NCBI GenBank assembly: GCA_004431415.1
Contig: QPMI01000226.1
Coordinates: forward strand, 1 to 64,000
Length of the DNA stretch: 64,000 nt
Direction: 5' to 3'
From: Cyanophora paradoxa CCMP329
Taxonomy: Eukaryota > Plantae > Glaucophyta
Below the pieces are notes generated by a model. The model ran no database searches. It was not told where the DNA came from and worked only from the letters and a program-made list of their open reading frames with translations. Numbering within the stretch: the first letter of the stretch is position 1; the number at the start of each line of letters is the position of its first letter. Positions 50 to 61,878 of the stretch are shown piece after piece. Made by a program: the position numbers and the translations under genes.

Positions 50-2526
50 CTTCTCGATGTCCAGCTTAGCGAGAGACTCGCGGGACTGCCTCCAGGCCAG
101 CACCGTGCTCCACAGATCGACGGGCTCCAGCGCGCCCGCCTCCAGCACGCTCCTGATCTCGCGCAGCCGCTGCTCCTTCTCCTGCTTCGGTCCGCTCGGG
201 TTTTGATCCTCCGTGACTTGCACGTTCATCAGCGCGCAGGTCGACATCAGCCGCAGGCGCGCTGCCACTGCGAGGCGCCGAGTGGGCATGCCGGCGCGGC
301 GGCTCCCGCGGTGGCTAGCCTTCAGGTCCAGGTAGCGCTGCATGTCGTCCGAGCTCTCGTCGTCGTCGCTCTCACGCCAGTGCGCAGCCGCCGCGCCGAC
401 CGCAACCGAGGGCGTCCGGTTCTTGCGCACGGCGACGAGCAGGTGCTCCCGTCGGGCGTGCTGCGTTTGCGCAGCCTTCTGACTCGAAACAGCAGCTGCA
501 CGATGTCGTCCGCCTCCAGCTGCGCGGGCTCCGCCTGGAACACGCCGTAGACCTTGTCAAAGTGCGCGTCCGAAAAGTCCACGCCTGCCCCGAGCGCGGA
601 AGTTGCGATGAGCACGTCGCAGGCCTTGTACGCGCCCTCCTCAGACACATCGATCGACACGATGCGCACTGGGCCCTCGTTCGTGAAGCGCACGCTCTTC
701 TCCTTGGCCTGCCCAACGATGAGCCCGATCGTGAACGGTGCGCCGCTGCCGTCCTCGGGCCCTGCCTCGAGCTGAGTCACGTACTGAGCGCCGCCCAGGC
801 TGAGCTGCTCCAGCGCCTGCTTCGCAATCTTCTCCTGCAGCTCGATCGCCTTGGCCGGCGTCTCCGCGATGATCATGGCCCGCGAGCGCCCAGGTCGGCA
901 CTGCACCATGATGTCCGCCTCGACGTGCGCCGGGCTGTCTGACACGCGCATCTTCCAGTCGCAGGTGCGATGCGAGTTGTACAGGAGCCCCAGGCGCGCC
1001 CCGACCTCCTGCGCCGACTCTGCCAGGTACGCGAGATCGACCGACCGAACGAAGCCGTCCATCGCCACGATGCGCGATGCCTTCATCACGCCGCGCCATA
1101 GGCCCACGCAGCGCGCGTTTCGAGGCACTGACCGCATACCTAGGTGCAGGCCGGTGGGCTCGAGGGTGCCGCTCGAGGTGAGGTGCTTCGTGAGGGAGGA
1201 GAGCTCGTCCAGCACGACCAGTAGCGGCGCCGTCGACCAGCCCTCCCAGTCCTCGAGCACCTTGTGCAGCGAGTCCCATGTGATGACGACGCACCTGCAC
1301 TCCTCATGGCGGAAGCCCCACTTGCCATGCGATCCCTTTGAGCTCTCCGGTGGCTTCTTGATGTCCATGTAAAGCACGGCGTCCTTTGACAACTCCGCAG
1401 CATCAATGCGACGCTTGAGGTCGCGGGAGAAGGCCCGGCGGCAAGTCACGAGGATCACTCGCCAGCCGCCTGCGAGGGCCGGGTCCAGGTACGCATCGAT
1501 CAGCGCCTGCGTCTTCCCGTGTTGAGTCCCGAGCAGATGACGTCGACCTGCGGCTGAGCGGATCTCGGGTTCTGCTCCAGCGCCCCGAATGCGGAGGTAA
1601 GGATCTTGCACGAGAGGTGGCGTTCATCCACTGCATTGACGCAAGCCTCCAGGCCGTCGACTCGAGCGCGATCAGGAGGGAGGGGAGGGCAATGTCGAAG
1701 GCGACAGGCTGCGAGGGATCGGTCACATAGCGGGTCTGTGCCACGCTGCCCGACTCCCCTCCGGTCCCCTCCCCTCGAGCTCGACTTCAATACCGTGCGC
1801 CTGGATGGAGATTCGAGCCGCCGGCGCCCCGGCTGACTCCCGCCAGGACGAGGGTGATGGACCCGTCGGGCTCGACTCCAAGGTGCTGAACGCGGCGGGC
1901 GTCGTGCAGGCCAAGGTCCGCGCGCAGCTCTGCCCCGCCTTCCAGATCTCGTCCCTCACCGCCTTGTTCTTGCGCAGGCGGTCCAGGAGCCGCTCCAAGG
2001 CCGGCAGGCTTGGGCTCGAATCCAGGAGAGCGCCCGGCTCCGGGATGGGCTTAGCGCGGGGCGCCGAGCTTCTGGATGGAGTGGGGAGGAGCTCCGCTCG
2101 CGGCCCGGGCGCCGGCCCCCGCAGAACGTAGCCCCCGTGCCATCCACACCGAGCTCCAGGCCGCTCGAGCTCCCAAAGAACCATGCCATGAGATCGCAAG
2201 CCTCCGGGCTCTGTAGGACGTAGGCAGCCTTGAATCCATTATCCAAGGGGCGAGAGAAAGTGAAGCCTCCGAACTTGGTTGCAAAGGCGCAGGCTGCCGC
2301 GGTGCTCGTCTCATCCTCGGCACCCGAGAAGTGGCTGGGGTGATGCAGGGCGGGTGGAAGACGCAGAAAGCCGTCCCAGGGTCGGGCTGCAGGCCTTCTG
2401 GACTTCGACGAGAGGGAATCGAACGAAAAAGCTGCACTCCTGCTCGCTCAGATCTATCTGCTGTACCCGGCCGGGCATACGGGCCAGGAAGGCGTCGACG
2501 TCGAGAGACACGCGTCCGGTTGCCAT
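50..2526 (-). CDS. Origin-binding-protein (herpes UL9/NCLDV OBP-like) SF2 helicase, copy A; only copy with the N-terminus, 3'-truncated, several 1-bp frameshifts
   Basis: Motifs SGLNTGKT (Walker A, split by a 1-bp deletion near 1516), VILVTCRRAFS, VITWDSLHKV, LVVLDELSS (Walker B), IVAMDG, ATSALGAGVDFSDAHFD, DIVQLLFRVRRL parallel the UL9 helicase motifs. Likely start ATG at 2526. Confidence 0.8.
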
Positions 2527-2614: not shown

Positions 2615-2752
2615 CTGTCTCGACCTTCTGAGATATTAATTTAAAGATCTGGGAGGGTCGGGACAGGCTCTGGTCCGTCTGGATCCGGACTGCTCAGCGG
2701 CTGTCTCGACCTTCTGAGATATTAATTTAAAGATCTGGGAGGGTCGGGACAG
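2615..2752. repeat. Two copies (86-bp spacing) of the inverted-repeat/AT-core element upstream of the helicase start
   Basis: ctgtctcgaccttctgagatattaatttaaagatctgggagggtcgggacag at 2615-2666 and 2701-2752; reverse orientation of the array unit at 8555. Confidence 0.9.
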
Positions 2753-5880: not shown

Positions 5881-6224
5881 ATGGGCTGGGTGGACGCCGT
5901 GCTGACCAAGGTCTTCGGACCGAAGAGCGCGCAGCCGCCGCCGAGCTTCAACCTGGCCGCGGCGATCAGCACGACGATCGAGCGCAAGAACAACGAGCTC
6001 ATCCTAAAGAACGACGGCAAGCTTCCCTGGGCCGACGTGGCCGCGGGCGCACTCGGCAGCACGCTGACGGGAATCGATCGGACGGGCGCCGCGGGCGTGA
6101 AGGTCGGGCAGGCGGTTGCGGCCGTGCCGGAGCTTGCGATGAAGGGCTGGCACTACGCCAAGATCGCCGCCGGCGTCGCCGCGGTGCTCCTTGCGATCTG
6201 GCTCGCGTGGCAAGCGCCGCCGTC
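5881..6224 (+). CDS. Small membrane protein (Met-Gly start, C-terminal TM), truncated by the helicase copy B junction
   Basis: MGWVDAVLTKVFGPK...KIAAGVAAVLLAIWLAWQ, then abrupt switch to helicase sequence at 6225. Confidence 0.55.
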
Positions 6225-8015
6225 GACGAGCTCTCCTCCCTCACGAAGCACCTCACCTCGAGCGGCACCCTCGAGCCCACCGGCCTGCACCTAGGTATGC
6301 GGTCAGTGCCTCGAAACGCGCGCTGCGTGGGCCTATGGCGCGGCGTGATGAAGGCATCGCGCATCGTGGCGATGGACGGCTTCGTTCGGTCGGTCGATCT
6401 CGCGTACCTGGCAGAGTCGGCGCAGGAGGTCGGGGCGCGCCTGGGGCTCCTGTACAACTCGCATCGCACCTGCGACTGGAAGATGCGCGTGTCAGACAGC
6501 CCGGCGCACGTCGAGGCGGACATCATGGTGCAGTGCCGACCTGGGCGCTCGCGGGCCATGATCATCGCGGAGACGCCGGCCAAGGCGATCGAGCTGCAGG
6601 AGAAGATTGCGAAGCAGGCGCTGGAGCAGCTCAGCCTGGGCGGCGCTCAGTACGTGACTCAGCTCGAGGCAGGGCCCGAGGACGGCAGCGGCGCACCGTT
6701 CACGATCGGGCTCATCGTTGGCAGGCCAAGGAGAAGAGCGTGCGCTTCACGAACGACGGCCCAGTGCGCATCGTGTCGATCGATGTGTCTGAGGAGGGCG
6801 CGTACAAGGCCTGCGACGTGCTCATCGCAACTTCCGCGCTCGGGGCAGGCGTGGACTTTTCGGACGCGCACTTTGACAAGGTCTACGGCGTGTTCCAGGC
6901 GGAGCCCGCGCAGCTGGAGGCGGACGACATCGTGCAGCTGCTGTTTCGAGTCAGAAGGCTGCGCAAACGCAGCACGCCCGACGGGGAGCACCTGCTCGTC
7001 GCCGTGCGCAAGAACCGGACGCCCTCGGTTGCGGTCGGCGCGGCGGCTGCGCACTGGCGTGAGAGCGACGACGACGAGAGCTCGGACGACATGCAGCGCT
7101 ACCTGGACCTGAAGGCTAGCCACCGCGGGAGCCGCCGCGCCGGCATGCCCACTCGGCGCCTCGCAGTGGCAGCGCGCCTGCGGCTGATGTCGACCTGCGC
7201 GCTGATGAACGTGCAAGTCACGGAGGATCAAAACCCGAGCGGACCGAAGCAGGAGAAGGAGCAGCGGCTGCGCGAGATCAGGAGCGTGCTGGAGGCGGGC
7301 GCGCTGGAGCCCGTCGATCTGTGGAGCACGGTGCTGGCCTGGAGGCAGTCCCGCGAGTCTCTCGCTAAGCTGGACATCGAGAAGGTTGCTTCGCTTGCTC
7401 GCACGTCGATCGCCGCGTTCCTGGCCAAGGATCCGAGCGAGCTGACCGAAGGAGACGTCGCCTGGATGTGGGATTCGTTCTACTCCATCCCGCTCACTGC
7501 CGTGGTCACGCTGGTGCTGAAGCATGGCGCGGACGTTGCCGAGATCGTGCCTACTGCTGAGCGCCTCAAGGTATCGAAGGTCGTCGCGCTGTTCAAGAAA
7601 CTCTTCGGCTGGCGGGGTATGGAAAGCTCGCGGGGCGTGCTCTGTGGTCGGACGAAGCCTACGCGGCCCTGGCGTCGCCGGAGGGTCGGGAGGCGTACGC
7701 GGCTCTGCAGAGTCTGGACGAGCGCGCGCCCCGCTTCGATGCAGCGGACGGTGAGAAGAAGCGGCTCTCGCAGCAGTCTTGGCAAGTCATCAAGTACCTG
7801 CTGGAGAAGTACCTCGGAGTGAGACGCGCTTTCTCCGACGCGGACGGAGGGCAAATGGGCAGCCGAAAGCGACGCTACATCACGTGGAGGAAGACATGCT
7901 CGACGACGCAGTAGAGCGCCAGGCTAAGCAGGCAAGGGCAGGCATGGCGCCAAGCTTCCCAGAGGTTTACAACGTTTTCTCCGACTGCTATGCTCTCATT
8001 CACAGGCGCGTGTGA
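6225..8015 (+). pseudogene. UL9/OBP-like helicase, copy B (starts at Walker B, retains C-terminus)
   Basis: Near-identical to 9890-11680 (offset ~3665); 1-bp deletions in G runs at ~6720, ~7632, ~7886. Confidence 0.85.
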
Positions 8016-8116
8016 TTGTCGGATGTCACAGTGTGGACTTCGCGAACGGGATGCGCGTGCCAGTGTGTAAATACGAACGTGCGAATTCAAGTGACGTCAT
8101 GCATATGATCAATGAA

Positions 8117-8888
8117 TGTCTCGACTTTTTGAGATATTAATTTAAAGATCTGGGAGGGTCGGGACATTGCGAGGGCGGACGAGAGTGAGGGCATGCACTC
8201 TCTATGTGTCCCGACCTTTTCTGAACAACTCATGATTGCCGTATCATCGATCTGCATTTACTCACTTCGTTCTCTGTCGCTTGCACATGCGCGGTGTGGG
8301 ATTACTAATTAGATCTAGTCTCCCTAGCCCTCTGCGGCCGCCTTCCTGCCCCCCTGCAAAGAGCAGCTCAACCAAATCCTGTGGGGTCTGATTCATTGCA
8401 GACTCGCCTTCCCCGCCTGGGCCTGAGCTACACCAAGCTACGGTGAGTCCGACCAAGAGACGTGTCCGGACCCTCCCTACTTTCTTTATAGATTATTGGA
8501 AAGGTCCGGACACTAGAGGAGGGAGGGCGTACATAAGTAGTCTGACCAAGAGACGTGTCCCGACCCTCCCAGATCTTTAAATTAATATCTGAGAGGGTCC
8601 GGACACTAGAGGAGGGCGTACATAAGTAGTCTGACCAAGAGACGTGTCCCGACCCTCCCAGATCTTTAAATTAATATCTGAGAGGGTCGAGACACTAGAG
8701 GAGGGCGTACATAAGTAGTCTGACCAAGAGACGTGTCCCGACCCTCCCAGATCTTTAAATTAATATCTGAGAGGGTCGAGACACTAGAGGAGGGCGTACA
8801 TAAGTAGTCTGACCAAGAGACGTGTCCCGACCCTCCCAGATCTTTAAATTAATATCTGAGAGGGTCGGGACACTAGAGGAGGGCGTAC
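8117..8888. repeat. Ori-like region 1: single hairpin 8117-8166, variant hairpin 8462-8513, four 89-bp tandem units with hairpins at 8555, 8644, 8733, 8822
   Basis: Unit contains GTGTCCCGACCCTC-C-CAGAT-CTTTAAATTAAT-ATCTG-A-GAGGGTCG(G/A)GACAC; period 89 bp (cactaga at 8604, 8693, 8782, 8871). Confidence 0.95.
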
Positions 8889-9499
8889 GACTTAAACTCG
8901 CGCAGCGCCGCCTGCTCCTCGCTGAGGTTCTCTGACTTCATTCGATCGCTGTAGGGCTCGGGCGGCGTACCCTCCTTGACGTGCATCCAAAACAGCTGTA
9001 AGCACCTCCTCATGAGCTTGATGTACCTCTCGTCCCGTCTGACGTACCACGTCTGCACGCGCAGAGGCGTGAAACAGAAAAGTTCGGCCCAGTCGCGGCC
9101 CGTTATGTCCAACAGGCCCTGAAGTTGTGGCATGTAATAGGTAGGAACGCTATCGTAAAGTTCGCCCTTGTAAGGGCATTTCACCTCTAAAATCCTATCA
9201 TTTCCTATCAGTCCGTCGGGGCTCCCGGCGAGGAACGGCATTTCTTTGTGTTCGTGCAGTCCAGTGTGTTGAATGTCCACGTTATCGTTCAGTGCCTTGT
9301 AGATAGAGACCGCGAGGGGCTCGTAGTCGTGCCCGTAGGTTAGGGCAGGGTTGTCAAAGTTGTTTTCCTCCGCTATCCCGCTTAGCTCCGCCCACAGGCG
9401 GGCCCTGGATTTCCAGGGGTTTATGCCGCACGCAGCCGCAAAATTAGATGCAGTTAGTTTTTCACGGCGCGCCGCGTGCCACGCTGCGCTCCCCTGTTG
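8873..9499 (-). pseudogene. YqaJ-like viral recombinase/lambda-exonuclease, 5'-truncated copy
   Basis: Collinear with 12448-13075 but lacks the first ~10 codons; motifs LAGSPDGLI, LEVKCP, YMPQLQ intact. Confidence 0.85.
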
Positions 9500-11680
9500 A
9501 CCTCCGCATTCGGGGCGCTGGAGCAGAACCCGAGATCCGCTCAGCCGCAGGTCGACGTCATCTGCTCGGGACTCAACACGGGGAAGACGCAGGCGCTGAT
9601 CGATGCGTACCTGGACCCGGCCCTTGCAGGCGGCTGGCGAGTGATCCTCGTGACTTGCCGCCGGGCCTTCTCCCGCGACCTCAAGCGTCGCATTGATGCT
9701 GCGGAGTTGTCAAAGGACGCCGTGCTTTACATGGACATCAAGAAGCCACCGGAGAGCTCAAAGGGATCGCATGGCAAGTGGGGCTTCCGCCATGAGGAGT
9801 GCAGGTGCGTCGTCATCACATGGGACTCGCTGCACAAGGTGCTCGAGGACTGGGAGGGCTGGTCGACGGCGCCGCTACTGGTCGTGCTGGACGAGCTCTC
9901 CTCCCTCACGAAGCACCTCACCTCGAGCGGCACCCTCGAGCCCACCGGCCTGCACCTAGGTATGCGGTCAGTGCCTCGAAACGCGCGCTGCGTGGGCCTA
10001 TGGCGCGGCGTGATGAAGGCATCGCGCATCGTGGCGATGGACGGCTTCGTTCGGTCGGTCGATCTCGCGTACCTGGCAGAGTCGGCGCAGGAGGTCGGGG
10101 CGCGCCTTGGGCTCCTGCACAACTCGCGCCGGACCTGCGACTGGAAGATGCGCGTGTCAGACAGCCCGGCGCACGTCGAGGCGGACATCATGGCGCTGTG
10201 CAGACCGGGGCGCTGCCGGGCGATGATCATTGCAGAGACGCCGGCCAAGGCGATCGAGATGCAGGAGAAGATTGCGAAGCAGGCGCTGGAGCAGCTCAGC
10301 CTGGGCGGCGCTCAGTACGTGACTCAGCTCGAGGCAGGGCCCGAGGACGGCAGCGGCGCACCGTTCACGATCGGGCTCATCGTTGGGCAGGCCAAGGAGA
10401 AGAGCGTGCGCTTCACGAACGACGGCCCAGTGCGCATCGTGTCGATCGATGTGTCTGAGGAGGGCGCGTACAAGGCCTGCGACGTGCTCATCGCAACTTC
10501 CGCGCTCGGGCAGGCGTGGACTTTTCGGACGCGCACTTTGACAAGGTCTACGGCGTGTTCCAGGCAGAGCCCGCGCAGCTGGAGGCGGACGACATCGTGC
10601 AGCTGCTGTTTCGAGTCAGAAGGCTGCGCAAACGCAGCACGCCCGACGGAGAGCACCTGCTCGTCGCCGTGCGCAAGAACCGGACGCCCTCGGTTGCGGT
10701 CGGCGCGGCGGCTGCGCACTGGCGTGAGAGCGACGACGACGAGAGCTCGGACGACATGCAGCGCTACCTGGACCTGAAGGCTAGCCACCGCGGGAGCCGC
10801 CGCGCCGGCATGCCCACTCGGCGCCTCGCAGTGGCAGCGCGCCTGCGGCTGATGTCGACCTGCGCGCTGATGAACGTGCAAGTCACGGAGGATCAAAACC
10901 CGAGCGGACCGAAGCAGGAGAAGGAGCAGCGGCTGCGCGAGATCAGGAGCGTGCTGGAGGCGGGCGCGCTGGAGCCCGTCGATCTGTGGAGCACGGTGCT
11001 GGCCTGGAGGCAGTCCCGCGAGTCTCTCGCTAAGCTGGACATCGAGAAGGTTGCTTCGCTTGCTCGCACGTCGATCGCCGCGTTCCTGGCCAAGGATCCG
11101 AGCGAGCTGACCGAAGGAGACGTCGCCTGGATGTGGGATTCGTTCTACTCCATCCCGCTCACTGCCGTGGTCACGCTGGTGCTGAAGCATGGCGCGGACG
11201 TTGCCGAGATCGTGCCTACTGCTGAGCGCCTCAAGGTATCGAAGGTCGTCGCGCTGTTCAAGAAACTCTTCGGCTGGCGGGGTATGGAAAGCTCGCGGGC
11301 GTGCTCTGTGGTCGGACGAAGCCTACGCGGCCCTGGCGTCGCCGGAGGGTCGGGAGGCGTACGCGGCTCTGCAGAGTCTGGACGAGCGCGCGCCCCGCTT
11401 CGATGCAGCGGACGGTGAGAAGAAGCGGCTCTCGCAGCAGTCTTGGCAAGTCATCAAGTACCTGCTGGAGAAGTACCTCGGAGTGAGACGCGCTTTCTCC
11501 GACGCGGACGGAGGGCAAATGGGCAGCCGAAAGCGACGCTACATCACGTGGGAGGAAGACATGCTCGACGACGCAGTAGAGCGCCAGGCTAAGCAGGCAA
11601 GGGCAGGCATGGCGCCAAGCTTCCCAGAGGTTTACAACGTTTTCTCCGACTGCTATGCTCTCATTCACAGGCGCGTGTGA
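9500..11680 (+). pseudogene. UL9/OBP-like helicase, copy C (whole helicase core and C-terminus, N-terminus missing)
   Basis: Walker A SGLNTGKT through to ...YALIHRRV*; frameshifts in G runs at ~10509 and ~11298. Confidence 0.85.
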
Positions 11681-11781
11681 TTGTCGGATGTCACAGTGTG
11701 GACTTCGCGAACGGGATGCGCGTGCCAGTGTGTAAATACGAACGTGCGAATTCAAGTGACGTCATGCATATGATCAATGAA

Positions 11782-12463
11782 TGTCTCGACCTTTTGAGAT
11801 ATTAATTTAAAGATCTGGGAGGGTCGGGACATTGCGAGGGCGGACGAGAGTGAGGGCATGCACTCTCTATGTGTCCCGACCTTTTCTGAACAACTCATGA
11901 TTGCCGTATCATCGATCTGCATTTACTCACTTCGTTCTCTGTCGCTTGCACATGCGCGGTGTGGGATTACTAATTAGATCTAGTCTCCCTAGCCCTCTGC
12001 GGCCGCCTTCCTGCCCCCTGCAAAGAGCAGCTCAACCAAATCCTGTGGGGTCTGATTCATTGCAGACTCGCCTTCCCCGCCTGGGCCTGAGCTACACCAA
12101 GCTACGGTGAGTCCGACCAAGAGACGTGTCCGGACCCTCCCTACTTTCTTTATAGATTATTGGAAAGGTCCGGACACTAGAGGAGGGAGGGCGTACATAA
12201 GTAGTCTGACCAAGAGACGTGTCCCGACCCTCCCAGATCTTTAAATTAATATCTGAGAGGGTCGAGACACTAGAGGAGGGCGTACATAAGTAGTCTGACC
12301 AAGAGACGTGTCCCGACCCTCCCAGATCTTTAAATTAATATCTGAGAGGGTCGAGACACTAGAGGAGGGCGTACATAAGTAGTCTGACCAAGAGACGTGT
12401 CCCGACCCTCCCAGATCTTTAAATTAATATCTGAGAGGGTCGGGACACTAGAGGAGGGCGTAC
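11782..12463. repeat. Ori-like region 2: single hairpin 11782-11831, variant hairpin 12126-12177, three 89-bp tandem units (hairpins at 12219, 12308, 12397)
   Basis: Same unit as region 1, with one fewer copy. Confidence 0.95.
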
Positions 12464-13104
12464 GACTTAAACTCGCGCAGCGCCGCCTGCTCCTCGCTGA
12501 GGTTCTCTGACTTCATTCGATCGCTGTAGGGCTCGGGCGGAGTTCCAGCCTTCACGTGCATCCAAAATAGATGTAAGCACTTCCTCATGAGCTCGATGTA
12601 CCTCTCGTCCCGTCTGACGTACCACGTTTGCACGCACAGAGGAGTGAAGCAAAAAAGTTCGGCCCACTCGCGGCCCGTGATGTCCAGAAGTCCTTGCAGT
12701 TGAGGCATATAATAGGTAGGAACTCTATCATAAAGTTCGCCCTTGTACGGGCATTTCACCTCTAAAATTCTATCATTTCCTATAAGTCCGTCGGGACTAC
12801 CGGCGAGGAACGGCATTTCTTTATGTTCGTGCAGTCCAGTATGTTTAATGTCAACGTTATCGTTCAGTGCCTTGTAGATAGAGACCGCGAGGGGCTCATA
12901 GTCATGCCCATAGGTTAGGGCAGGGTTGTCAAAGTTGTTTTCCTCCGCTATCCCGCTTAGCTCCGCCCACAGGCGGGCCCTGGATTTCCAGGGGTTTATG
13001 CCGCACGCAGCCGCAAAATTAGATGCAGTTAGTTTTTCACGGCGCGCCGCGTGCCACGCTGCGCTCCCCTGTTGCAAAGTCTCGCAATTTGTATCGGTAT
13101 GCAT
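12448..13104 (-). CDS. YqaJ-like viral recombinase / lambda exonuclease family protein, intact 218 aa
   Basis: QGSAAWHAARREKLTAS, YGHDYEPLA, FLAGSPDGLI, ILEVKCPY, YYMPQLQG are hallmark PD-(D/E)xK YqaJ motifs; intronless and lower GC than host genes. Confidence 0.92.
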   Translation of the reverse strand: MHTDTNCETLQQGSAAWHAARREKLTASNFAAACGINPWKSRARLWAELSGIAEENNFDNPALTYGHDYEPLAVSIYKALNDNVDIKHTGLHEHKEMPFLAGSPDGLIGNDRILEVKCPYKGELYDRVPTYYMPQLQGLLDITGREWAELFCFTPLCVQTWYVRRDERYIELMRKCLHLFWMHVKAGTPPEPYSDRMKSENLSEEQAALREFKSYALL

Positions 13105-22282: not shown

Positions 22283-22438
22283 CCTAGTAGCCTAGTAGTA
22301 CTTGCTCAAACATGTACACCGCGCGCGCACACACGATCGATCGCGACGTCGACTTGCAAATATTGAAATTGAAATTAATTAACGCCGCCGGGCCGCAGCG
22401 CTGCCAGGCTGGGAGTCGATCAATTGCCAAGCTTTTAA

Positions 22439-23448
22439 TTGGAAACGGGGTAGGGCCCCCGTTTCCTGTCACTTACAAAATGACGGTCCTGCTCATCTCC
22501 CGATCCAGCTCCGAGCTCTTAACCGAGTGTTAGTGCATGCATGAGAGCCCGGAATTCGTTGTCAGAACCCGGAAAGAGCGGAATGCTGCGCGGAAAAAAG
22601 GACCGGATCCATTCACGGATTTTCCCTTGCAGCGCCTGATCCTGTGATCGTATAGGGGCCGGACCAAGTGCATAAGAAAGCTCTTGCGATGCTCGGCAGA
22701 GCTTGTCATACATGCTAGTGCTCGGAAAGCAGCGCGTGGCGCGCTAGGCCGCACCAAGTACCTGTTGTACCGAACTCGAAAAAAAGAGCTCCTGCGAGTT
22801 GGAGGCGATATCGTGTTGCAGTACCCGTACTTCAAGTCGGCGAGCTAGCCGACAGGCTCGCTAGCTGGCCAGCGTAGCTAGGTGAGCTCCGGCGCCGGCT
22901 AGCGGCTTGCAGGACTTGGGCGCGCGCCGCGGCGCTGGCGCCGCCCCGGGCCAGCTGCATGCAGCCTGCAGGCGCGCGGTACGGTTGCCGGCGCTGGCCG
23001 CCTCAGGCCGGCCGCTGATCATGATCATGAGCCACTGTGATGACAGCTGCAGGCTACACGTGCCACGGTGCAGCTGCATGCGCATGCGCACATGCGCATG
23101 CGCTATCCTATAGCTAGTATACGTATGCACGCGCCGGCGCGCGGCAGCCGCATGCCGCAGTGCGCCTCCGGGCCTCGGCGCCGGCGCATGCATGAGGTGA
23201 TCATGAGCTAGCGCTCCGGCGCGCGGATCCGCACTGCGGCAGCTGCGCATGCCGATGGCCATGGCGAGCTCGAGCTGATGCGCGCGCGCATGCGCAGCTG
23301 CAGCTGCCGCAGTGCAGCTGCCGATGACGAGATAGCGCTCGCCGAGTCGACTCGGCGAGCACCCAGCTAGCTCGACCTACCCCGTTTCCAACCGGCGGCC
23401 GGCCCAGTCAGAGGCTCAGAGCCCGAGCAGAGGCCGCCGCGTGCTAGT
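22439..23448 (+). mobile_element. Non-autonomous element with asymmetric 16-bp inverted repeats (Helitron2/Helentron-like), copy 1
   Basis: TTGGAAACGGGGTAGG at 22439 and its reverse complement at 23376-23391; homology to copy 2 continues ~57 bp further to CTAGT; no TSD. Confidence 0.7.
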
Positions 23449-23957: not shown

Positions 23958-26900
23958 ATGGACCTGGCAAGCAGGAGAGCGCCGCGGCTGATTCCGAGCG
24001 CATTCGCGGGTGCACATGCGAGGACGCGGCGAAGTTGCCCGCGGCTGGTGTCTAGCCATATCGCTCGACTGCTGGTCCCCGTGGTGTTGTGGCTTTGCTT
24101 ATCGAGAGCACATGCTTGGTGCGTCCGGGCGTGTGCAAGCTTTTCGATCGGGGAGCGCCACGCGCGCTACCGCTGTTCGGAGCCTGCAAATCTGACGGTC
24201 ACTTGCGGCAGGATCACCGTCAGCGGGAGCAGAAACCTCACAATACAGGTGCTTAGCCCGCGCGCGTTGTGTCTCGCCAGGCGCAGCTCACTTTCCTGCT
24301 CGTTCCACAGGAGGACACTTTTGTCGGTCAGCTATTGCCCTTCTTTCTCCAGTCTGCATATGCTCACATTTTGCGAAGGATACTGGGACGGCGCCGATAC
24401 TCGCAGCCTCTATGTAACAGGAGATGTTGTCGTGGGGAGGGGCAGCAGCGGCAATGTGAATGTCAGGGTGCGCTAATCGTTGTTTTCCCTCGCCTTCCAC
24501 ACTTTTAATCATTTTCTTTCCTGTTCCCTGACTTTGCTTTCTTTGCAGGGCAACATTGCTGTATGTTCCTTGTATTCCTTTTGTTCATCGTTTGCTAATC
24601 CTCTCTTAGGTTGCCGGGTCAGTCTCGCTGTCAACAATCGTCGCGAATGCAGGGGCCGCTGCGGTGTCGTTGAACGCCGACGTTACGGTCTCGGGGCGCT
24701 TGACGGCGCAGTCGGGAACGTTTGGTGTGCTCAGCGTCAACGGGAGCACCGTATCGTCAACATCCGGCCCTCTCACCCTTCAATCCGCCGACCAAGTTGT
24801 GATCCGAAGCGCGCCTACGATTGGGAACATCACGCTCTCAGCGGGCAGCTCAGTCGTCGTCCAGAGCCCGCTGGTCGTCACTGCAGGTGCCGCTGGCCCG
24901 CGATGTCCGCGTCGCGCGTCTATCTCACCATGCATGCAGAAACCTCACTGATGGCTCATGCAACTTTCGGCGGGACTGCCTCCTTCGCGGGGCTCGTGAG
25001 CCTTAACGGAGGAGCTACGGTCGCTGGCACGTGGACAGTGTCCGGTAACCTCGGCGCTGGTTCGGCCACGTTTGCGGGCCTTGTCAACGCTACCGCTGGG
25101 ATTACTGCCTACGGCGCCACCACGCTCTTTGGGCCGCTCTCCGGATCCAGCGCGACGTTTTCAAGCCCTGTCGTGTTCAACGCCGGAGTTTCGATATTAA
25201 CGGGCGCAACTGTGTCCGGCCAAGTCAACACAACATCCGGTATCAACGTTGGCGGTCCCGGGGCGGCACCACTGTTCTCCGTTGACGCGGCGGGCAACAC
25301 GATCGTTCGGGGCAGCCTCACTGTTGACGGCGCGTTCAAAGCAGGCTTTGGCTCCTTCTTCGACCAGACTCAGGCGATCCTGAACGGCTCACATGTCGCT
25401 GGTCTGGTAGTGGCATCGACCTACGGAAGTCTATCTCTTCAGCCAGGCAATGGCCAGCTCGTCACGACAGCGACTTCCCTACAAAGCTCGAGTCCTTCGG
25501 GGTTCTCCATCGATAACGCCGTGTCTGTCTCCTTCACGACCAGTGGAACGATCAATCTCGCAGCGGCCTCCATACTTGCACACTCCCCATCCACATTCCT
25601 GGGCTCCGTCAATGCGAGCGCCAGTCTCACAGTCGGTGGCGGCGCGACGCTCTCGGGGCCTGTGGTGGCGATGGCGGGCGTGTCGGCAACGGGCCAGGTG
25701 AACGCGACGCAGGGGCTGAACGTGGGCGGACCGGACACGGCGCCGCTCTTCTCGGTGGACCCGGCGGGCAACACCGTGGTCCGGGGCAGCCTGACCGTGG
25801 ACGGCGCGTTCAAGGCCGGCATGGCGTCCTTCTTTGACGAGTCGAAGCCGCTGCTCAACGCGACGAGCCCCCAGGGCCTGTCGATCACGACGATGGTGGG
25901 GTCGCTGGAGCTGAAGCCGAGCTCGGGGGAGGTCTTGACAACGGCGGCGCTGCTGACGTCGACGAACCCGGCGGGCCTCAAGGTGTCGAACGCCGCGGGC
26001 GTCGTGGTGGACACGAACGGGACGGCGGCCGTGTCGGCGCTGGGCGCGGTGTCGGTGAAGGGCGCATCGGTGTCGGTGGCGGGGCCGGCGACGTTCAGCG
26101 ACCCGGCAAACTTCAGCTCCAGCCTGACCGTCGGGGGCGGGGCGACGCTCTCGGGGCCTGTGGTGGCGATGGCGGGCGTGTCGGCAACGGGCCAGGTGAA
26201 CGCGACGCAGGGGCTGAACGTGGGCGGACCGGGCACGGCGCCGCTCTTCTCGGTGGACCCGGCGGGCAACACCGTGGTCCGGGGCAGCCTGACCGTGGAC
26301 GGCGCGTTCAAGGCCGGCATGGCGTCCTTCTTTGACGAGTCGAAGCCGCTGCTCAACGCGACGAGCCCCCAGGGCCTGTCGATCACGACGATGGCGGGGT
26401 CGCTGGAGCTGAAGCCGAGCTCGGGGGAGGTCTTGACAACGGCGGCGCTGCTGACGTCGACGAACCCGGCGGGCCTCAAGGTGTCGAACGCCGCGGGCGT
26501 CGTGGTGGACACGAACGGGACGGCGGCCGTGTCGGCGCTGGGCGCGGTGTCGGTGAAGGGCGCATCGGTGTCGGTGGCGGGGCCGGCGACGTTCAGCGAC
26601 CCGGCAAACTTCAGCTCCAGCCTGACCGTCGGGGGCGGGGCGACGCTCTCGGGGCCTGTGGTGGCGATGGCGGGCGTGTCGGCAACGGGCCAGGTGAACG
26701 CGACGCAGGGGCTGAACGTGGGCGGACCGGGCGCGGCGCCGCTCTTCTCGGTGGACCCGGCGGGCAACACCGTGGTCCGGGGCAGCCTGACCGTGGATGG
26801 CGCGTTCAAGGCCGGCATGGCGTCCTTCTTTGACGAGTCGAAGCCGCTGCTCAACGCGACGAGCCCCCAGGGCCTGTCGATCACGACGATGGCGGGGTCG

Positions 26901-29900
26901 CTGGAGCTGAAGCCGAGCTCGGGGGAGGTCTTGACAACGGCGGCGCTGCTGACGTCGACGAACCCGGCGGGCCTCAAGGTGTCGAACGCCGCGGGCGTCG
27001 TGGTGGACACGAACGGGACGGCGGCCGTGTCGGCGCTGGGCGCGGTGTCGGTGAAGGGCGCATCGGTGTCGGTGGCGGGGCCGGCGACGTTCAGCGACCC
27101 GGCAAACTTCAGCTCCAGCCTGACCGTCGGGGGCGGCGCGACGCTCTCGGGGCCTGTCGTAGCGATGGCGGGCGTTTCGGCAACGGGCCAGGTGAACGCG
27201 ACGCAGGGGCTGAACGTGGGCGGGCCGGGCGCGGCGCCGCTCTTCTCGGTGGACCCGGCGGGCAACACCGTGGTCCGGGGCAGCCTGACCGTGGACGGCG
27301 CGTTCAAGGCCGGCATGGCGTCCTTCTTTGACGAGTCGAAGCCGCTGCTCAACGCGACGAGCCCCCAGGGCCTGTCGATCACGACGATGGCGGGGTCGCT
27401 GGAGCTGAAGCCGAGCTCGGGGGAGGTCTTGACAACGGCGGCGCTGCTGACGTCGACGAACCCGGCGGGCCTCAAGGTGTCGAACGCCGCGGGCGTCGTA
27501 GTGGACACGAACGGGACGGCGGCCGTGTCGGCACTGGGCGCGGTGTCGGTGAAGGGCGCATCGGTGTCGGTGGCGGGGCCGGCGACGTTCAGCGACCCGG
27601 CAAACTTCAGCTCCAGCCTGACCGTCGGGGGCAGCGCGACGCTCTCGGGGCCTGTCGTAGCGATGGTGGGCGTGTCGGCGACGGGCCAGGTGAACGCGAC
27701 GCAGGGGCTGAACGTGGGCGGGCCGGGCGCGGCGCCGCTCTTCTCGGTGGACCCGGCGGGCAACACCGTGGTCCGGGGCAGCCTGATCGTGGACGGCGCG
27801 TTCAAGGCCGGCATGGCGTCCTTCTTTGACGAGTCGAAGCCGCTGCTCAACGCGACGAGCCCCCAGGGCCTGTCGATCACGACGATGGCGGGGTCGCTGG
27901 AGCTGAAGCCGAGCTCGGGGGAGGTCTTGACAACGGCGGCGCTGCTGACGTCGACGAACCCGGCGGGCCTCAAGGTGTCGAACGCTGCGGGCGTCGTGGT
28001 GGACACGAACGGGACGGCGGCCGTGTCGGCGCTGGGCGCGGTGTCGGTGAAGGGCGCATCGGTGTCGGTGGCGGGGCCGGCGACGTTCAGCGACCCGGCA
28101 AACTTCAGCTCCAGCCTGACCGTCGGGGGCGGGGCGACGCTCTCGGGGCCTGTCGTAGCGATGGCGGGCGTGTCGGCGACGGGCCAGGTGAACGCGACGC
28201 AGGGGCTGAACGTGGGCGGGCCGAGCACGGCGCCGCTCTTCTCGGTGGACCCGGCGGGCAACGCTGCCGTTGGTGGAACGCTCTCTGTCAAAGGTGGTTT
28301 CGTTGGCGCAATGTCTTTCACGGACGCCCTTGTGGTGCGTAAAACGATGCTTGCGTGAAATGATGCTTCTTTTGTCGTGTTTTCGGCTAACGGGGACGTT
28401 TCTGCAGGCCCCGGGGGTGAAGGCTCCAGCGAATTTGGATATCAATGCTCCAAACGGCTCCGTGTCCTTGGCATCTTCCTCTTCATCTGGAAGCCCGAAT
28501 GCTGTCACGATCGTGGGCGGGACCATTCACCTAGTTGGAGATGTTTCCGTGTCACGGCTCTCAAGCGGAGGCGGTGGCAGCTTCACTGGCGAAGTGAACA
28601 CCACGACGGGCATCAACGTGGGCGGGCCGGGCGCGGCGCCGCTCTTCTCGGTGGACCCGGCGGGCAACACCGTGGTCCGGGGCAGCCTGATCGTGGACGG
28701 CGCGTTCAAGGCCGGCATGGCGTCCTTCTTTGACGAGTCGAAGCCGCTGCTCAACGCGACGAGCCCCCAGGGCCTGTCGATCACGACGATGGCGGGGTCG
28801 CTGGAGCTGAAGCCGAGCTCGGGGGAGGTCTTGACAACGGCGGCGCTGCTGACGTCGACGAACCCGGCGGGCCTCAAGGTGTCGAACGCCGCGGGCGTCG
28901 TAGTGGACACGAACGGGACGGCGGCCGTGTCGGCGCTGGGCGCGGTGTCGGTGAAGGGCGCATCGGTGTCGGTGGCGGGGCCGGCGACGTTCAGCGACCC
29001 GGCAAACTTCAGCTCCAGCCTGACCGTCGGGGGCGGCGCGACGCTCTCGGGGCCTGTCGTAGCGATGGCGGGCGTGTCGGCGACGGGCCAGGTGAACGCG
29101 ACGCAGGGGCTGAACGTGGGCGGGCCGGGCGCGGCGCCGCTCTTCTCGGTGGACCCGGCGGGCAACACCGTGGTCCGGGGCAGCCTGATCGTGGACGGCG
29201 CGTTCAAGGCCGGCATGGCGTCCTTCTTTGACGAGTCGAAGCCGCTGCTCAACGCGACGAGCCCCCAGGGCCTGTCGATCACGACGATGGCGGGGTCGCT
29301 GGAGCTGAAGCCGAGCTCGGGGGAGGTCTTGACAACGGCGGCGCTGCTGACGTCGACGAACCCGGCGGGCCTCAAGGTGTCGAACGCCGCGGGCGTCGTG
29401 GTGGACACGAACGGGACGGCGGCCGTGTCGGCGCTGGGCGCGGTGTCGGTGAAGGGCGCATCGGTGTCGGTGGCGGGGCCGGCGACGTTCAGCGACCCGG
29501 CAAACTTCAGCTCCAGCCTGACCGTCGGGGGCGGGGCGACGCTCTCGGGGCCTGTCGTAGCGATGGCGGGCGTGTCGGCAACGGGCCAGGTGAACGCGAC
29601 GCAGGGGCTGAACGTGGGCAGGCCGGGCGCGGCGCCGCTCTTCTCGGTGGACCCGGCGGGCAACGCTGCCGTTGGTGGAACGCTCTCTGTCAAAGGTGGT
29701 TTCGTTGGCGCAATGTCTTTCACGGACGCCCTTGTGGTGCGTAAAACGATGCTTGCGTGAAATGATGCTTCTTTTGTCGTGTTTTCGGCTAACGGGGACG
29801 TTTCTGCAGGCCCCGGGGGTGAAGGCTCCAGCGAATTTGGATATCAATGCTCCAAACGGCTCCGTGTCCTTGGCATCTTCCTCTTCATCTGGAAGCCCGA

Positions 29901-60505: not shown

Positions 60506-60847
60506 CGCCCGCGACGTCCACCCCCGTCCTCTCCCCTCCCCAGGCTCCCCTCCACCACCACGGTGCCCACCCTGTATTGCGTATGCACACTGCAGTCGCC
60601 GCGAGTCTCGTATGTGTTACGTTCTGTCCCGACTCCGGAATTTTAAACTCGTAAAGAAATCAAATGCAAGCTTCGAGCTTTAATTGATTTCATGCCATGA
60701 TGGGCACTGTTTCATGCGCACTAGTACTGCACACAGTGGCACTTAAAAAGCTTGTCGATCCACGGCCCCCGCCCCGGCGCCGGACTGCAAGCTTAAGCCG
60801 GGGTCGGCCTCTCATGTTAGCTATGCGCATGCAATGATGCCATGATA

Positions 60848-61878
60848 TTGGAAACGGGGTAGGGCCCCCGTTTTCGGTAACTTACAAAATGACGGTCCTG
60901 CTCATGTCCCGATCCAGCTCCGAGCTCTTAACCGAGTGTTGGTGCATGCATGAGAGCCCGGAATCCGTTGTCAGAACCCGGAAAGAGCGGAATGCTGCTC
61001 GGAAAAAAGGACCAGACCCTTTCCTGGACTATCCCTTGCAGCGCCTGATCCTGTGGTCGTATAGGGGCCGGACCAAGTGCATAAGAAAGCTCTTGCAATG
61101 CTCGGCAGCGCTTGTCATACATGCCAGAGCTCGGGAAGCAGCGCGTGGCGCGCTAGGCCGCATCAAGTACCTGCTGTACCGAACGCGGAAAAAAAGAGCT
61201 CCTGAGAGTTGGAGGCGATATCATGTTGCAGTACCCGTGCGTAAGCCGGCGTGCTAGCCGACAGGCTCGCTAGCTGGCCAGCGTAGCTAGGTGAGCTCCG
61301 GCGCCGGCTAGCGGCTTGCAGGACTTAGGCGCGCGCCGCGGCGCTGGCGCCGCGGCCGCCCCGGGCCAGCCTGGCAGCTGCAGGCGGTACGGTTGCCGGC
61401 GCTGGCCGCCTCAGGCCGGCGCCGGCGCCCGCGGCCGGTCAGTGCGGTCGACGTCATGCATATGCTACTAGCCGCTGAGCCACTGTGACAGGCTACACGT
61501 GCAGCTGCATGCGCATCATGGCATGCGCACATGCGCATGCGCTATCCTAGTATGCACGCGCCGGCGCGCGGCAGCCGCATGCCGCAGTGCGCCGCGGCGC
61601 ATGCATGATCATGAGGTGAGCTCCGGATCCGCACTGCGGCAGCTGCGCATGCCGATGACGAGCTTGATCATGAGCTGATGCGCGCGCGCATGCGCAGCTG
61701 CAGCCGCCGCAGTGCAGCTGCCGATGGCGAGCTAGCGGCGTAGCGCTCGCCGAGTCGACTCGGCGAGCACCCAATTGCAACTAGCTCGACCTACGGGTCA
61801 CCTACCCCGTTTCCAACCGGCGGCCGGCCGCGGCCAGTCAGAGGCTCAGAGCCCGAGCAGAGGCCGCCGCGTGCTAGT
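60848..61878 (+). mobile_element. Non-autonomous Helitron2/Helentron-like element, copy 2
   Basis: TTGGAAACGGGGTAGG at 60848, reverse complement at 61801-61816, shared tail to CTAGT at 61878; collinear with copy 1. Confidence 0.7.

Follow-up and report, generated by a model that had tools for sequence, protein, structure and literature searches.

The 89-bp repeat array next to an exonuclease gene of Cyanophora paradoxa CCMP329 derives from a 52-nt hairpin module by tandem duplication; the module stands where each of the two convergent genes of a repeated element ends. We tentatively favor the reading, itself somewhat short of probable, that the array acts strand-specifically in single-stranded form, probably as RNA, as a 3′-end hairpin. 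The window, i.e. the whole analyzed stretch of 64,000 nt (contig QPMI01000226.1, forward strand), contains three partial copies (A, B, and C) of the element, which comprises approximately 4.8 kb with two convergent intronless genes for an SF2 helicase and a YqaJ/lambda-type exonuclease. The element likely resides in the nuclear genome, and at least 12 of its gene models are found elsewhere in the same organism; a search for the family gave 13 gene models, 12 of which covered >15% of the query with 48 to 100% identity and were assigned to 12 contig names. The relevant features, by coordinates and strand, are:

50–2312, minus strand: helicase copy C, inverted and 3′-truncated at 50; 50–1598 is 98.6% identical to 11049–9500
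2615–2666 and 2701–2752, plus strand: hairpins C1 and C2, 86 nt apart, stable fold (termed alpha) on the plus strand, preceding the 5′ end region of helicase copy C, which is inverted and partial
6216–8015, plus strand: helicase copy A, 5′-truncated at the duplication boundary 6225
8116–8167, plus strand: single hairpin A0, oriented oppositely to the array, alpha fold on the plus strand, five G·T wobbles and one mismatch
8168–8445, no strand: spacer of 278 nt between A0 and array A, with a solitary half-hairpin (box 8208–8216)
8446–8888, minus strand: array A with hairpins Av (8462–8513), A1 (8555–8606), A2 (8644–8695), A3 (8733–8784), and A4 (8822–8873), alpha fold on the minus strand
8873–9499, minus strand: YqaJ exonuclease copy A, 98% identical to residues 4–211 of P0001, first three codons missing at the A/B junction
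9476–11680, plus strand: helicase copy B, CyRepA1/UL9-like SF2, intronless
11781–11832, plus strand: single hairpin B0, twin of A0, 101 nt past the helicase stop codon (11678–11680)
12110–12463, minus strand: array B with hairpins Bv (12126–12177), B1 (12219–12270), B2 (12308–12359), and B3 (12397–12448)
12448–13104, minus strand: YqaJ exonuclease copy B, ORF of 218 amino acids, stop codon TAG at 12448–12450
13163, no strand: likely right boundary of the element, where DNA contigs leave the window sequence in three of four DNA runs (X4, X5, and X6) and enter at least two other contexts

Arrays A and B are segmental duplicates with 99% identity, and local duplication junctions were located at 6225, 9499/9500, and 13074. 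The frame of helicase copy B was open over 735 codons after addition of single G's at positions 10507, 11278, and 11296, all three of which were present in each of the four DNA runs examined; the N-terminal coding region of copy C extended to about 2312 in a tblastn analysis. Hairpin A0 begins 101 nt past the helicase stop codon (8013–8015). At the exonuclease gene the contact is closer: the stop codon of YqaJ copy A shares the first base of hairpin A4, and in copy B the G of the TAG stop is the first base of hairpin B3. Every 89-bp unit contains the last five YqaJ codons and the stop, and the array starts inside the stop codon; thus, the array arose by tandem duplication of the 3′ end of the gene. 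A covariance-model scan revealed no hairpin upstream of the YqaJ gene. The element consists of two genes only, and a Pfam analysis of the ORFs between 1 and 34 kb gave no RNase III or poly(A) polymerase domain. PADLOC reported no defence family, a phage collection gave no match by DNA or with the helicase protein, and no description of the helicase plus exonuclease element was found in the literature; it seems to be undescribed.

Tandem Repeats Finder assigned a period of 89 to both arrays (array A: 4.9 copies, 94% matches, score 720; array B: 3.9 copies, 92%). Array A is composed of four standard units and one variant unit, and its shorter twin B of three standard units and one variant, in agreement with the count of four versus three given in the earlier note. 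The region 8117–8888, which had been described as one array, has to be divided into an inverted single hairpin (8117–8166), the 278-nt spacer, and the array proper. Each unit consists of a 52-nt hairpin and a 37-nt linker. The hairpin is a palindrome whose arms measure 20 bp and whose AT loop measures 12 nt. Comparison of the hairpin sequences bore out the proposed 14-bp arms and inner CAGAT/ATCTG pair; the arms consist of 14 bp and, after one mismatch, these 5 bp around an AT centre, CTTTAAATTAAT. For the core CAGATCTTTAAATTAATATCTG, 11 matches with ≤1 mismatch were obtained versus 0.00 expected, a number that was reached in none of 100 shuffles. We derived a covariance model from these copies, which, with filters off, detected exactly 13 hairpins in the 64 kb, the number claimed before, with only eight distinct sequences among them. 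A fourteenth candidate (E = 0.024) in DNA of 78% GC was regarded as a chance match.

The box consensus TGTC(C/T)(C/G)GACC was likewise recovered: GTCYSGACC had 27 matches versus 3.9 expected, and 25 of the 27 were located within hairpin arms, the other two being solitary half-sites at 8208 and 11873. A linker box GTCYGACC, described earlier as GTC(T/C)GACC, was found in every unit. In the variant unit at 8462–8513 both arms had changed jointly to GTCCGGACC around another AT-rich centre at an unaltered length of 52 nt, as originally reported, and the unit at 8555–8606 (A1) is a hybrid whose two arms are of different types and that consequently carries a mismatch. The inner part has turned over, whereas the outer 11 bp of each arm, the linker half-box, the 52-nt length, and the AT-rich centre were preserved, and at least three diverged loop types are alike in length, AT-richness, and position. 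The sequence 3′ of the stems is GTCTCTTGG, TTGCGAGG, or GGCT(C/T)TGG and contains no T-run of an intrinsic terminator. No Rfam family reached its gathering threshold (best MIR1888, 34.1 bits versus 72; the rest were weaker, sub-threshold miRNA models). An exact scan for the hairpin core gave no locus in viral contigs; four loci in metagenome contigs (31 to 39% GC) had no arms and were dismissed as chance matches.

The two arms are conserved to different degrees. One arm was almost invariant, and the other had acquired C-to-T changes only, preserving pairing as G·U on the strand that is sense for the upstream gene. Of the 160 cells scored for the alpha strand, 95.6% were paired; on the other strand the share was 81.9%. 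Five pairs varied one-sidedly on the alpha strand, all from C-G to U-G, and a sixth one-sided change from A-U to U-G (columns 24/39) was confined to the variant unit; on the non-alpha strand no pair showed one-sided variation, and nine pairs departed via unpaired cells. All six one-sided changes in the window preserve G·U/G·T pairing, in each case on just one of the two strands, and no A·C combination was present on the alpha strand in the 13 copies (10 read directly; C1, C2, and Bv via alignment counts). The alpha strand coincides at each of the three sites with the sense strand of whatever gene or RNA arrives from upstream, with the pairs helicase ORF to A0/B0, YqaJ ORF to the arrays, and spliced antisense RNA to C1/C2. 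RNA folding of the six distinct types gave −39, −36, −23.3, −26.1, −31.8, and −30.3 kcal/mol for the alpha strand versus −35.5, −28.6, −10.7, −14.2, −25, and −18.2 kcal/mol for the other strand, so that alpha folded better in six of six cases. As DNA, the degenerate single hairpins folded weakly on both strands (−7.4 and −9.8 versus −4.4 and −6.3).

The covariation of the arms suggested in the earlier note stands in part. One compensatory change from C-G to G-C was identified in the variant unit, and the closing pair is G-C, A-U, or C-G in three different contexts, but the events are few, the copies comprise only eight distinct sequences, and the hybrid unit has a mismatch. A further variant, present only in loose ends of the DNA runs, has GACC and GGTC swapped between the arms and carries a G·T on the opposite strand, which lowers the one-sided tally to six of seven. 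The number of independent one-sided transitions is about six, corresponding to p ≈ 0.016 if both strands are equal, and strand-biased C-to-T mutation could mimic selection on pairing.

Transcripts were followed in unstranded contigs of four out of six runs tentatively inferred to be RNA, with four DNA runs for comparison. Spliced joints were present in the four inferred-RNA runs and absent from the four DNA runs. Nine CT..AC joints place a spliced transcript on the minus strand of copy B; this antisense RNA is abundant and spans the helicase gene in the RNA-run contigs. One of its loose ends maps to 1653–1682 on the minus strand, indicating that the antisense RNA continues towards C1/C2. An RNA contig at 12413–12687 (run X15, record 5) joins the YqaJ coding sequence to hairpin B3, other contigs of this run cover the spacer and the array, and a contig of run X18 (record 18) extends 340 nt beyond a hairpin into the flank seen right of C2. 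A low-depth GT..AG joint antisense to YqaJ (run X17) implies read-through. In other genomic copies, sampled as loose ends at 12438, the hairpin beside the YqaJ stop keeps its position and differs in its AT-rich loop. Contig ends at 11824 and 11802 were considered as an RNA end at B0 and rejected, as the same ends occurred in all four DNA runs and represent assembly-graph breaks at a repeat. A drop of contig depth across B0 in the four inferred-RNA runs, flat in the four DNA runs, was not taken as evidence because only one depth is available per contig, the element is multi-copy, and the RNA contig past the hairpin may be a chimera.

As a stem-loop formed by RNA within 3′ untranslated regions, the hairpin would mark, process, or stabilize transcript 3′ ends and may limit read-through between the convergent helicase and YqaJ genes; the extra copies would then be fail-safe duplicates or neutral products of slippage. 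Such a mode could resemble the ‘hairpin rule’ of giant viruses or organellar 3′ stem-loops. According to PMC4402537, palindromic hairpins mark mRNA 3′ ends in Mimiviridae; they lie directly after the coding region of genes that are often convergent, their structure counts for more than their sequence, and the signal acts in RNA. The position is comparable here, with one hairpin overlapping the YqaJ stop and another 101 nt past the helicase stop. Giant-virus hairpins vary between genes, and the virus encodes the RNase III that cleaves them in conjunction with its poly(A) polymerase, whereas the Cyanophora element has one conserved and tandemly repeated hairpin family, two genes, and no such enzymes. 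Several observations count against an RNA hairpin at the 3′ end. RNA contigs pass through the hairpins; nuclear genes transcribed by Pol II do not require a hairpin, the stems have no T-run, and none matches Rfam. The conserved outer arms and the linker half-box suit a protein–DNA site no less well, iterons and hr-type repeats are typically amplified in tandem, and the adjoining gene codes for a replication-type helicase. The small number of independent one-sided events and the strand-biased mutation mentioned above weigh in the same direction.

The array may instead be a replication origin or cis-acting binding array for the helicase of the element, a possibility that we judge somewhat doubtful and that stays alive because the neighboring gene encodes a replication-type helicase. 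The inverted TGTC(C/T)(C/G)GACC boxes would then serve as binding sites of the helicase in duplex, extruded, or single-stranded hairpin form, and the AT centre would melt within an iteron-like array. By sequence comparison, the adjoining gene product is related to replication initiator helicases (CyRepA1, Herpes_ori_bp, UL9, and PHROG matches). The NCBIfam CyRepA1 model (NF042913) matched residues 144–495 with 55.1 bits (E = 6.3e-15, profile positions 3–292 of 595), below the equivalog cut-off of 200 bits; on this basis the helicase is a homologue of CyRepA1, not an equivalog. Alignment with CyRepA1 of a Nostoc plasmid by hhalign gave a probability of 94.6% (E = 7e-8) with a common motif around ATSALGAGVDFSDAHFDKIYGIF. 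Pfam Herpes_ori_bp (PF02399) scored 28.5 bits with a cut-off of 20, covering profile positions 48–161 of 820 only. All four PDB hits in a sequence/profile search were UL9 origin-binding proteins (E about 0.009), the nearest ESM Atlas clusters were Herpes_ori_bp and CyRepA1, and the PHROG category ‘replication’ was matched with E = 9e-4. The AlphaFold model was poor (pLDDT 43.8), so that Foldseek, which ranked UL9 fifth in a list of generic SF2 helicases, indicates a generic SF2 fold only. A Pfam analysis of the N-terminal 140–330 residues of P0082 and P0083 gave no primase-like DUF3854/Toprim domain, and an HUH/rolling-circle reading was discarded after inspection of the N-terminal sequence by eye gave no HUH motif. 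Relatives outside the organism were found neither among 1.84 billion representative proteins nor by profile search; the helicase family is an orphan. The YqaJ gene product was assigned by Pfam PF09588 (100.1 bits versus a cut-off of 22), TIGR03033 (99.3 bits versus 68), and a PHROG RecE-like exonuclease (E = 9e-40); the search for its homologues gave one distant viral relative (27% identity) and was uninformative.

Three replication systems invite comparison. Baculovirus hr regions, of which a genome has several arrays, are built of tandem units of about 70 to 90 bp; each unit holds an imperfect palindrome whose AT core resembles a restriction site. They are proposed origins and enhancers and are bound by a dimeric protein. 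Tandem palindrome units in several arrays also occur here, a likeness of architecture only, but the Cyanophora arrays are tied to one two-gene element, no IE-1-like gene was seen, and we know of no hr repeat described with the arm asymmetry and wobble-only changes found here. In herpes simplex virus (HSV), a single-stranded hairpin form of the origin, oriS*, is recognized by UL9. HSV oriS and oriL resemble the hairpins in having a palindrome of about 45 to 55 bp, inverted boxes, an A+T-rich centre, a third box nearby, and an SF2 helicase that is, in Cyanophora, putatively of the Herpes_ori_bp type. According to PMC13483431, oriS has inverted boxes around an A+T-rich spacer, with a UL9 box of the GTTCGCAC type. 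The Cyanophora box TGTC(C/T)(C/G)GACC is unlike and unrelated to that of UL9, although the architecture with a 12-nt AT centre is present; moreover, the Cyanophora helicase matches the N-terminal motor region only, and weakly, and the units are tandem, stand at gene 3′ ends, overlap a stop codon, and are chromosomal copies in an alga. For cyanobacteria, PMC9978351 and PMC10079941 report that CyRepA1 and CyRepA2 were experimentally required for plasmid replication and that replication of pSYSA is under the control of an abundant antisense RNA; CyRepA1 has an N-terminal primase-like DUF3854/Toprim domain (PMC10079941). The Cyanophora element shares with such replicons a homologue of the CyRepA1 helicase domain and an abundant antisense RNA over the helicase gene. 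It differs in its setting in a eukaryotic nucleus, in the splicing of the antisense RNA, in the score (55 versus 200 bits), and in having no match to the primase-like domain, and the Nostoc CyRepA1 locus contained no comparable palindrome or repeat array.

The earlier note had ascribed the symmetry, spacing, and AT-richness to selection for dimeric protein binding plus melting, an interpretation that our results support in part. The persistence of symmetry, length, and AT centre (the latter in at least three loop variants), together with the conserved outer arms and linker half-box, the tandem amplification of the module, and the hairpins on both sides of the helicase gene, upstream (C1/C2) and downstream, is consistent with a binding array for the replication-type helicase encoded upstream. 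The unequal conservation of the arms, the mismatches as strand-specific wobbles, and the poor folding of the single hairpins as DNA on both strands argue against an origin, as do the orientation of the hairpins, which tracks gene direction, and the start of the array in a stop codon. The unequal arms, the one-strand wobbles, and the stop-codon overlap speak in particular against a symmetric dimer site on duplex DNA. Membership in the UL9/CyRepA1 family is partial, the box differs, and every copy seen is chromosomally integrated. A doubtful extension of the origin reading would make the arrays origins, or strand-specific sites of cis-replication and recombination, of an undescribed plasmid-like replicon family in the glaucophyte nucleus, with a CyRepA1/UL9-related initiator that recognizes one-strand hairpins (as with oriS*/attC) and with copying controlled by the lambda-type exonuclease and the abundant spliced antisense RNA.

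Alternatively, the hairpins could be terminal or subterminal recombination or transposition sites that are cut or paired as strand-specific single-stranded DNA during copying of the element, with YqaJ exposing the strands; we consider this unlikely. Integron attC sites, Helitron 3′ hairpins, and IS200/IS605 ends are the relevant comparison. Integron attC sites are imperfect palindromes just after or overlapping the stop codon of the cassette gene, in fixed orientation, with one-strand folding, conserved outer boxes, and a variable centre, and the Cyanophora hairpins match them in all these respects, including the strand asymmetry in fixed orientation to genes. Inverted hairpins bracket the helicase gene with the invariant arm facing outwards at either end (TGTCCCGACCCTCCC ... 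GGGAGGGTCGGGACA), an arrangement that resembles 15-bp terminal inverted repeats, and the family has multiplied (12 gene models, 12 contig names). However, attC sites are bacterial, require the IntI tyrosine recombinase, and are not tandem; no recombinase was found in the Cyanophora element, nor any transposase, integrase, or HUH nuclease. Differing flanks meet at hairpin edges in contigs, but such flank changes may be assembly-graph artefacts. The right boundary near 13163 has no hairpin, the local duplication junctions (6225, 9499/9500, and 13074) lie away from hairpins, and a target-site duplication was not evident.

A functionless satellite, i.e. a palindromic relic by the YqaJ stop that expanded via slippage or unequal crossing-over and was spread by segmental duplication, appears quite unlikely. 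It would account for the copy number of four versus three units between 99% identical duplicates, the hybrid and half units (8555–8606, 8208, 11873), the limited set of eight sequences in 13 copies, and the apparent decay of the single hairpins. It sits badly with pairing that survives a compensatory change and an arm-segment swap, with one-sided changes in the window that are wobble-only in six of six cases, and with at least three diverged loop types of like length, AT-richness, and position.

It is very improbable that the hairpins are a promoter or enhancer module, in which the AT loop (TTTAAAG or TATAAAG) would be a TATA-like core between symmetric factor sites and drive the helicase (from C1/C2), the abundant antisense RNA (from A0/B0), or both. 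C1/C2 stand about 90 to 180 nt upstream of a candidate ATG at 2527 (read by eye; tblastn shows coding only to about 2312), spliced antisense RNA contigs reach the B0 edge (11824–11831), and baculovirus hr repeats double as enhancers and origins. Against this, RNA contigs contain the hairpins instead of starting downstream, the YqaJ gene has no upstream hairpin, and the contigs give only thin cover to the spacer lying downstream of A0/B0 and downstream of the arrays (contig-level). Reading the loop as TATA-like or as a poly(A) signal was rejected as motif resemblance alone, and a short-hairpin/siRNA-precursor reading is unsupported, Rfam giving sub-threshold miRNA models only.

If the array acts as an RNA hairpin, a nuclear mobile element would have its own conserved, strand-specific 3′-end stem-loop; such devices are known from giant viruses and organelles and, to our knowledge, not from nuclear genes of algae. 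If it is an origin, a self-copying element in the glaucophyte nucleus would use an initiator akin to cyanobacterial plasmid Rep and herpes UL9 at a compact, testable origin. This would bear on gene flow from cyanobacteria or plasmids into the lineage with the most cyanobacterium-like plastid, and it could supply an autonomously replicating sequence for Cyanophora genetics. Under either reading, the element carries an orphan helicase family.

Two tandem arrays with an 89-bp unit were identified using Tandem Repeats Finder. Each unit is composed of a 37-nt linker and a 52-nt palindrome, in which 20-bp arms, interrupted by a single internal mismatch, enclose a 12-nt AT loop. The copies were used to build a covariance model, and an unfiltered search of the 64 kb with it detected exactly 13 hairpins, representing only eight distinct sequences:

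2615–2666 and 2701–2752, two hairpins (C1, C2) near copy C, an inverted partial helicase copy
8116–8167, single hairpin (A0), opposite in orientation to the arrays
8446–8888, array A (4.9 copies), five hairpins including one diverged variant
11781–11832, single hairpin (B0), opposite in orientation to the arrays
12110–12463, array B (3.9 copies), four hairpins including one variant (Bv)

The core formed by loop and inner arms gave 11 matches in the window at ≤1 mismatch (0 expected). The 9-mer box GTCYSGACC occurred 27 times (3.9 expected), 25 times in hairpin arms and twice as a solitary half-site (2/27, both in spacers), and a shortened box was present in every linker. These repeat, covariance-model, and box counts agree with the palindrome array described in an earlier note. 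The region 8117–8888, which that note had treated as one array, does contain hairpins but is not continuous: a single inverted hairpin is followed by a 278-nt spacer and then by the array.

Self-comparison revealed the repeated units in which the hairpins lie:

6225–8799 and 9890–12463, repeat pair, 99% identity
8539–9499 and 12110–13074, repeat pair, 94% identity
50–1598 and 9500–11049, inverted copy, 98.6% identity

Each unit (the element, about 4.8 kb) contains two intronless, convergent genes. The minus-strand gene encodes a YqaJ/lambda-type exonuclease (PF09588, 100 bits; TIGR03033, 99 bits) that also matches the PHROG RecE-like family, and the plus-strand gene encodes an SF2 helicase whose sequence contains a Walker A motif (GLNTGKT) and a DE box. 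The window has a GC content of 68% overall and 75% at 40–50 kb, and eukaryotic genes in it encode SGT1, Mpv17/PMP22, an SNF2/chromo protein, and, in fragmented form, a class II tRNA synthetase. The lower GC content of the element (YqaJ 53%, array 50%, helicase 65%, versus ~75% in host DNA; 8–20 kb compared with 40–60 kb) is consistent with a foreign origin. Junctions were located at 6225, 9499/9500, and 13074; at the tandem duplication junction (9499/9500), YqaJ copy A has lost its first three codons and helicase copy B its N-terminal region. At 13163, DNA contigs diverge from the window into two or more different contexts, probably marking the right boundary of the element. Elsewhere, 498-bp tandem repeats (25617–31457; 5.3, 2.1, and further copies, 92–99% identical) sit in long plus-strand ORFs (24903–28358, 28360–29760, 29762–30652) whose product has 166-aa repeats and a weak Poly_export match, and a dispersed repeat of ~1 kb occurs at 22438–23448 and 60847–61878 (84% identity).

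A 48%-identical paralogue of the helicase aligned to the unspliced plus strand (9461–11674) with two frame breaks. All four DNA runs added single G's at 10507, 11278, and 11296 and a C at 12013, all in homopolymer runs; the same additions at 11278, 11296, and 12013 were made by 4/4 runs presumed by guess to be RNA (contigs, unstranded). With the three added G's, the helicase frame is open over 735 codons; thus, homopolymer undercalls in the window falsely interrupt the frame, and the helicase gene is intact. A word-indexed search retrieved 13 gene models, 12 of which matched >15% of the query at 48–100% identity (12 contig names) and one over 5% only. Exhaustive phmmer analysis of 1.84 billion representatives gave five hits, four known models and a 138-aa fragment, and a profile search gave 12 hits, all models already found. 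By these sequence searches, with the 138-aa fragment left aside, the family is known from one organism only, probably C. paradoxa, since the model names (tig00000144_g...) share the contig naming of a paper on that species.

The helicase matched Pfam Herpes_ori_bp with 28.5 bits (cut-off 20) in the N-terminal motor only, and its PDB sequence matches were exclusively four UL9 origin-binding proteins (E ~0.009). The NCBIfam model of the plasmid replication protein CyRepA1 scored 55 bits (E 6.3e-15), far below the equivalog cut-off of 200. Alignment to a Nostoc plasmid CyRepA1 (hhalign probability 94.6%, E 7e-8, 239 columns) took in the family's most conserved motif, the nearest ESM Atlas clusters were labelled Herpes_ori_bp and CyRepA1, and a PHROG 'replication' family matched at E 9e-4. 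The AlphaFold model was poor (pLDDT 43.8), and the Foldseek matches reflected no more than a generic SF2 fold, UL9 ranking fifth among them. As several weak lines agree, the helicase is distantly homologous to replication-initiator helicases rather than a demonstrated member of the UL9 or CyRepA1 family. CyRepA1 and CyRepA2 are required for cyanobacterial plasmid replication (PMC9978351, PMC10079941).

In the YqaJ ORF (12448–13104, minus strand), the final base of the TAG stop is also the opening base of B3, an array-B hairpin, and copy A has the same overlap. Every 89-bp unit carries in its linker a repeat of the five terminal YqaJ codons plus the stop, so the array arose by tandem duplication of a segment comprising the YqaJ 3′ end, the hairpin, and the next 21 nt. 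A0 and B0 lie 101 nt 3′ of the helicase stop codon, inverted relative to the array, and C1 and C2 precede the 5′ region of copy C.

Sequence variation was evaluated relative to an 'alpha' orientation, defined by a loop reading ATTAATTTAAAG. The alpha 3′ arm is invariant save one compensatory change in the variant, and the 5′ arm shows C-to-T at five positions, all yielding T·G. No A·C occurs on alpha in the 10 copies tabulated in register; counts from the all-copy alignment, which cover C1, C2, and Bv (one base out of register in the table), agree. Of 160 cells, 95.6% were paired on alpha versus 81.9% on the other strand. One-sided variation affected five pairs (all C-G to U-G) versus none, with about six independent transitions; three versus nine pairs departed via unpaired cells, and four versus three changed on both sides. 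A further variant, detected solely among DNA-contig loose ends, has a G·T on the non-alpha strand and a compensatory swap of a GACC/GGTC segment between the arms. Folded as RNA, alpha was better in 6/6 distinct types, with the widest gap in the single hairpins (−23.3 and −26.1 versus −10.7 and −14.2 kcal/mol); on DNA parameters, these were weak on both strands. Alpha is the helicase sense strand at A0/B0 and the YqaJ sense strand at the arrays.

The presumed-RNA runs contained nine CT..AC-ended joints (9561–10907), corresponding to short (49–117 nt) minus-strand introns with GT..AG ends, which run antisense to the intact helicase frame. None was present in the four DNA runs, indicating that the splicing is real. 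The loose end found at 9501 matches 1653–1682 (minus strand) with one mismatch, from which we infer one more antisense intron in copy C (1599–1652, plus strand); this shows the antisense RNA continuing towards C1/C2, which it would meet in alpha orientation. Thus, each of the three hairpin sites faces incoming transcription of some kind in alpha orientation. At least one of the RNA contigs extends 340 nt past a hairpin into the flank located to the right of C2; it may be chimeric. Contig ends at 11824 and 11802 were rejected as RNA ends because the same ends in DNA runs identify them as graph breaks. In run X17, a single GT..AG joint of low depth (12572–12640, plus strand, antisense to YqaJ) indicates that plus-strand transcription from the helicase side reads through the array to some extent.

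The position of hairpins at stop codons, an orientation that tracks gene direction at 3/3 sites, sense-strand decay confined to wobble pairs, and degenerate copies stable only as RNA argue for a hairpin acting single-stranded, probably as an RNA 3′-end stem-loop; we favor this tentatively, at somewhat less than even weight. The module resembles the Mimiviridae hairpin rule (PMC4402537) in architecture, but neither of its defining viral enzymes, RNase III and poly(A) polymerase, was found by Pfam in ORFs of 1–34 kb.

A somewhat less likely possibility is the origin or helicase-binding array put forward in the earlier note. The adjoining replication-type helicase, flanked by hairpins on both sides, speaks for it, as do the conserved outer boxes and linker half-box, the fixed 52-nt length with AT-rich centers kept across at least three loop variants, and the tandem amplification. 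Baculovirus hr repeats have a similar form; the likeness is in architecture only, IE-1 being the hr-defining feature. HSV oriS, with its A+T-rich spacer between inverted boxes (PMC13483431), is also alike in architecture, but the UL9 box sequence was not found in the module. No Rfam family matches the hairpin, and no description of the element or its repeats was found in searches of open-access full text.

That the hairpins are transposition or recombination ends is unlikely. Integron attC sites are similar in form; the module shares their architecture, but integrase, an attC feature, was not found in the element. A neutral satellite is slightly less probable still, and a promoter or enhancer very unlikely.

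The spliced antisense RNA (9501–10907, minus strand) contains no long ORF; it was abundant, and unspliced sense RNA was seemingly rare in the presumed-RNA runs. Contigs of run X17 are very short (average ~49 nt) and reach extremely high depth across the 3′ part of the helicase and across YqaJ (11236–11731, 12600–12971). This run may represent a small-RNA library and would then be a hint of siRNAs derived from convergent or antisense transcripts. By analogy, the spliced antisense RNA recalls the antisense control of CyRepA1 plasmids or the silencing of mobile elements.
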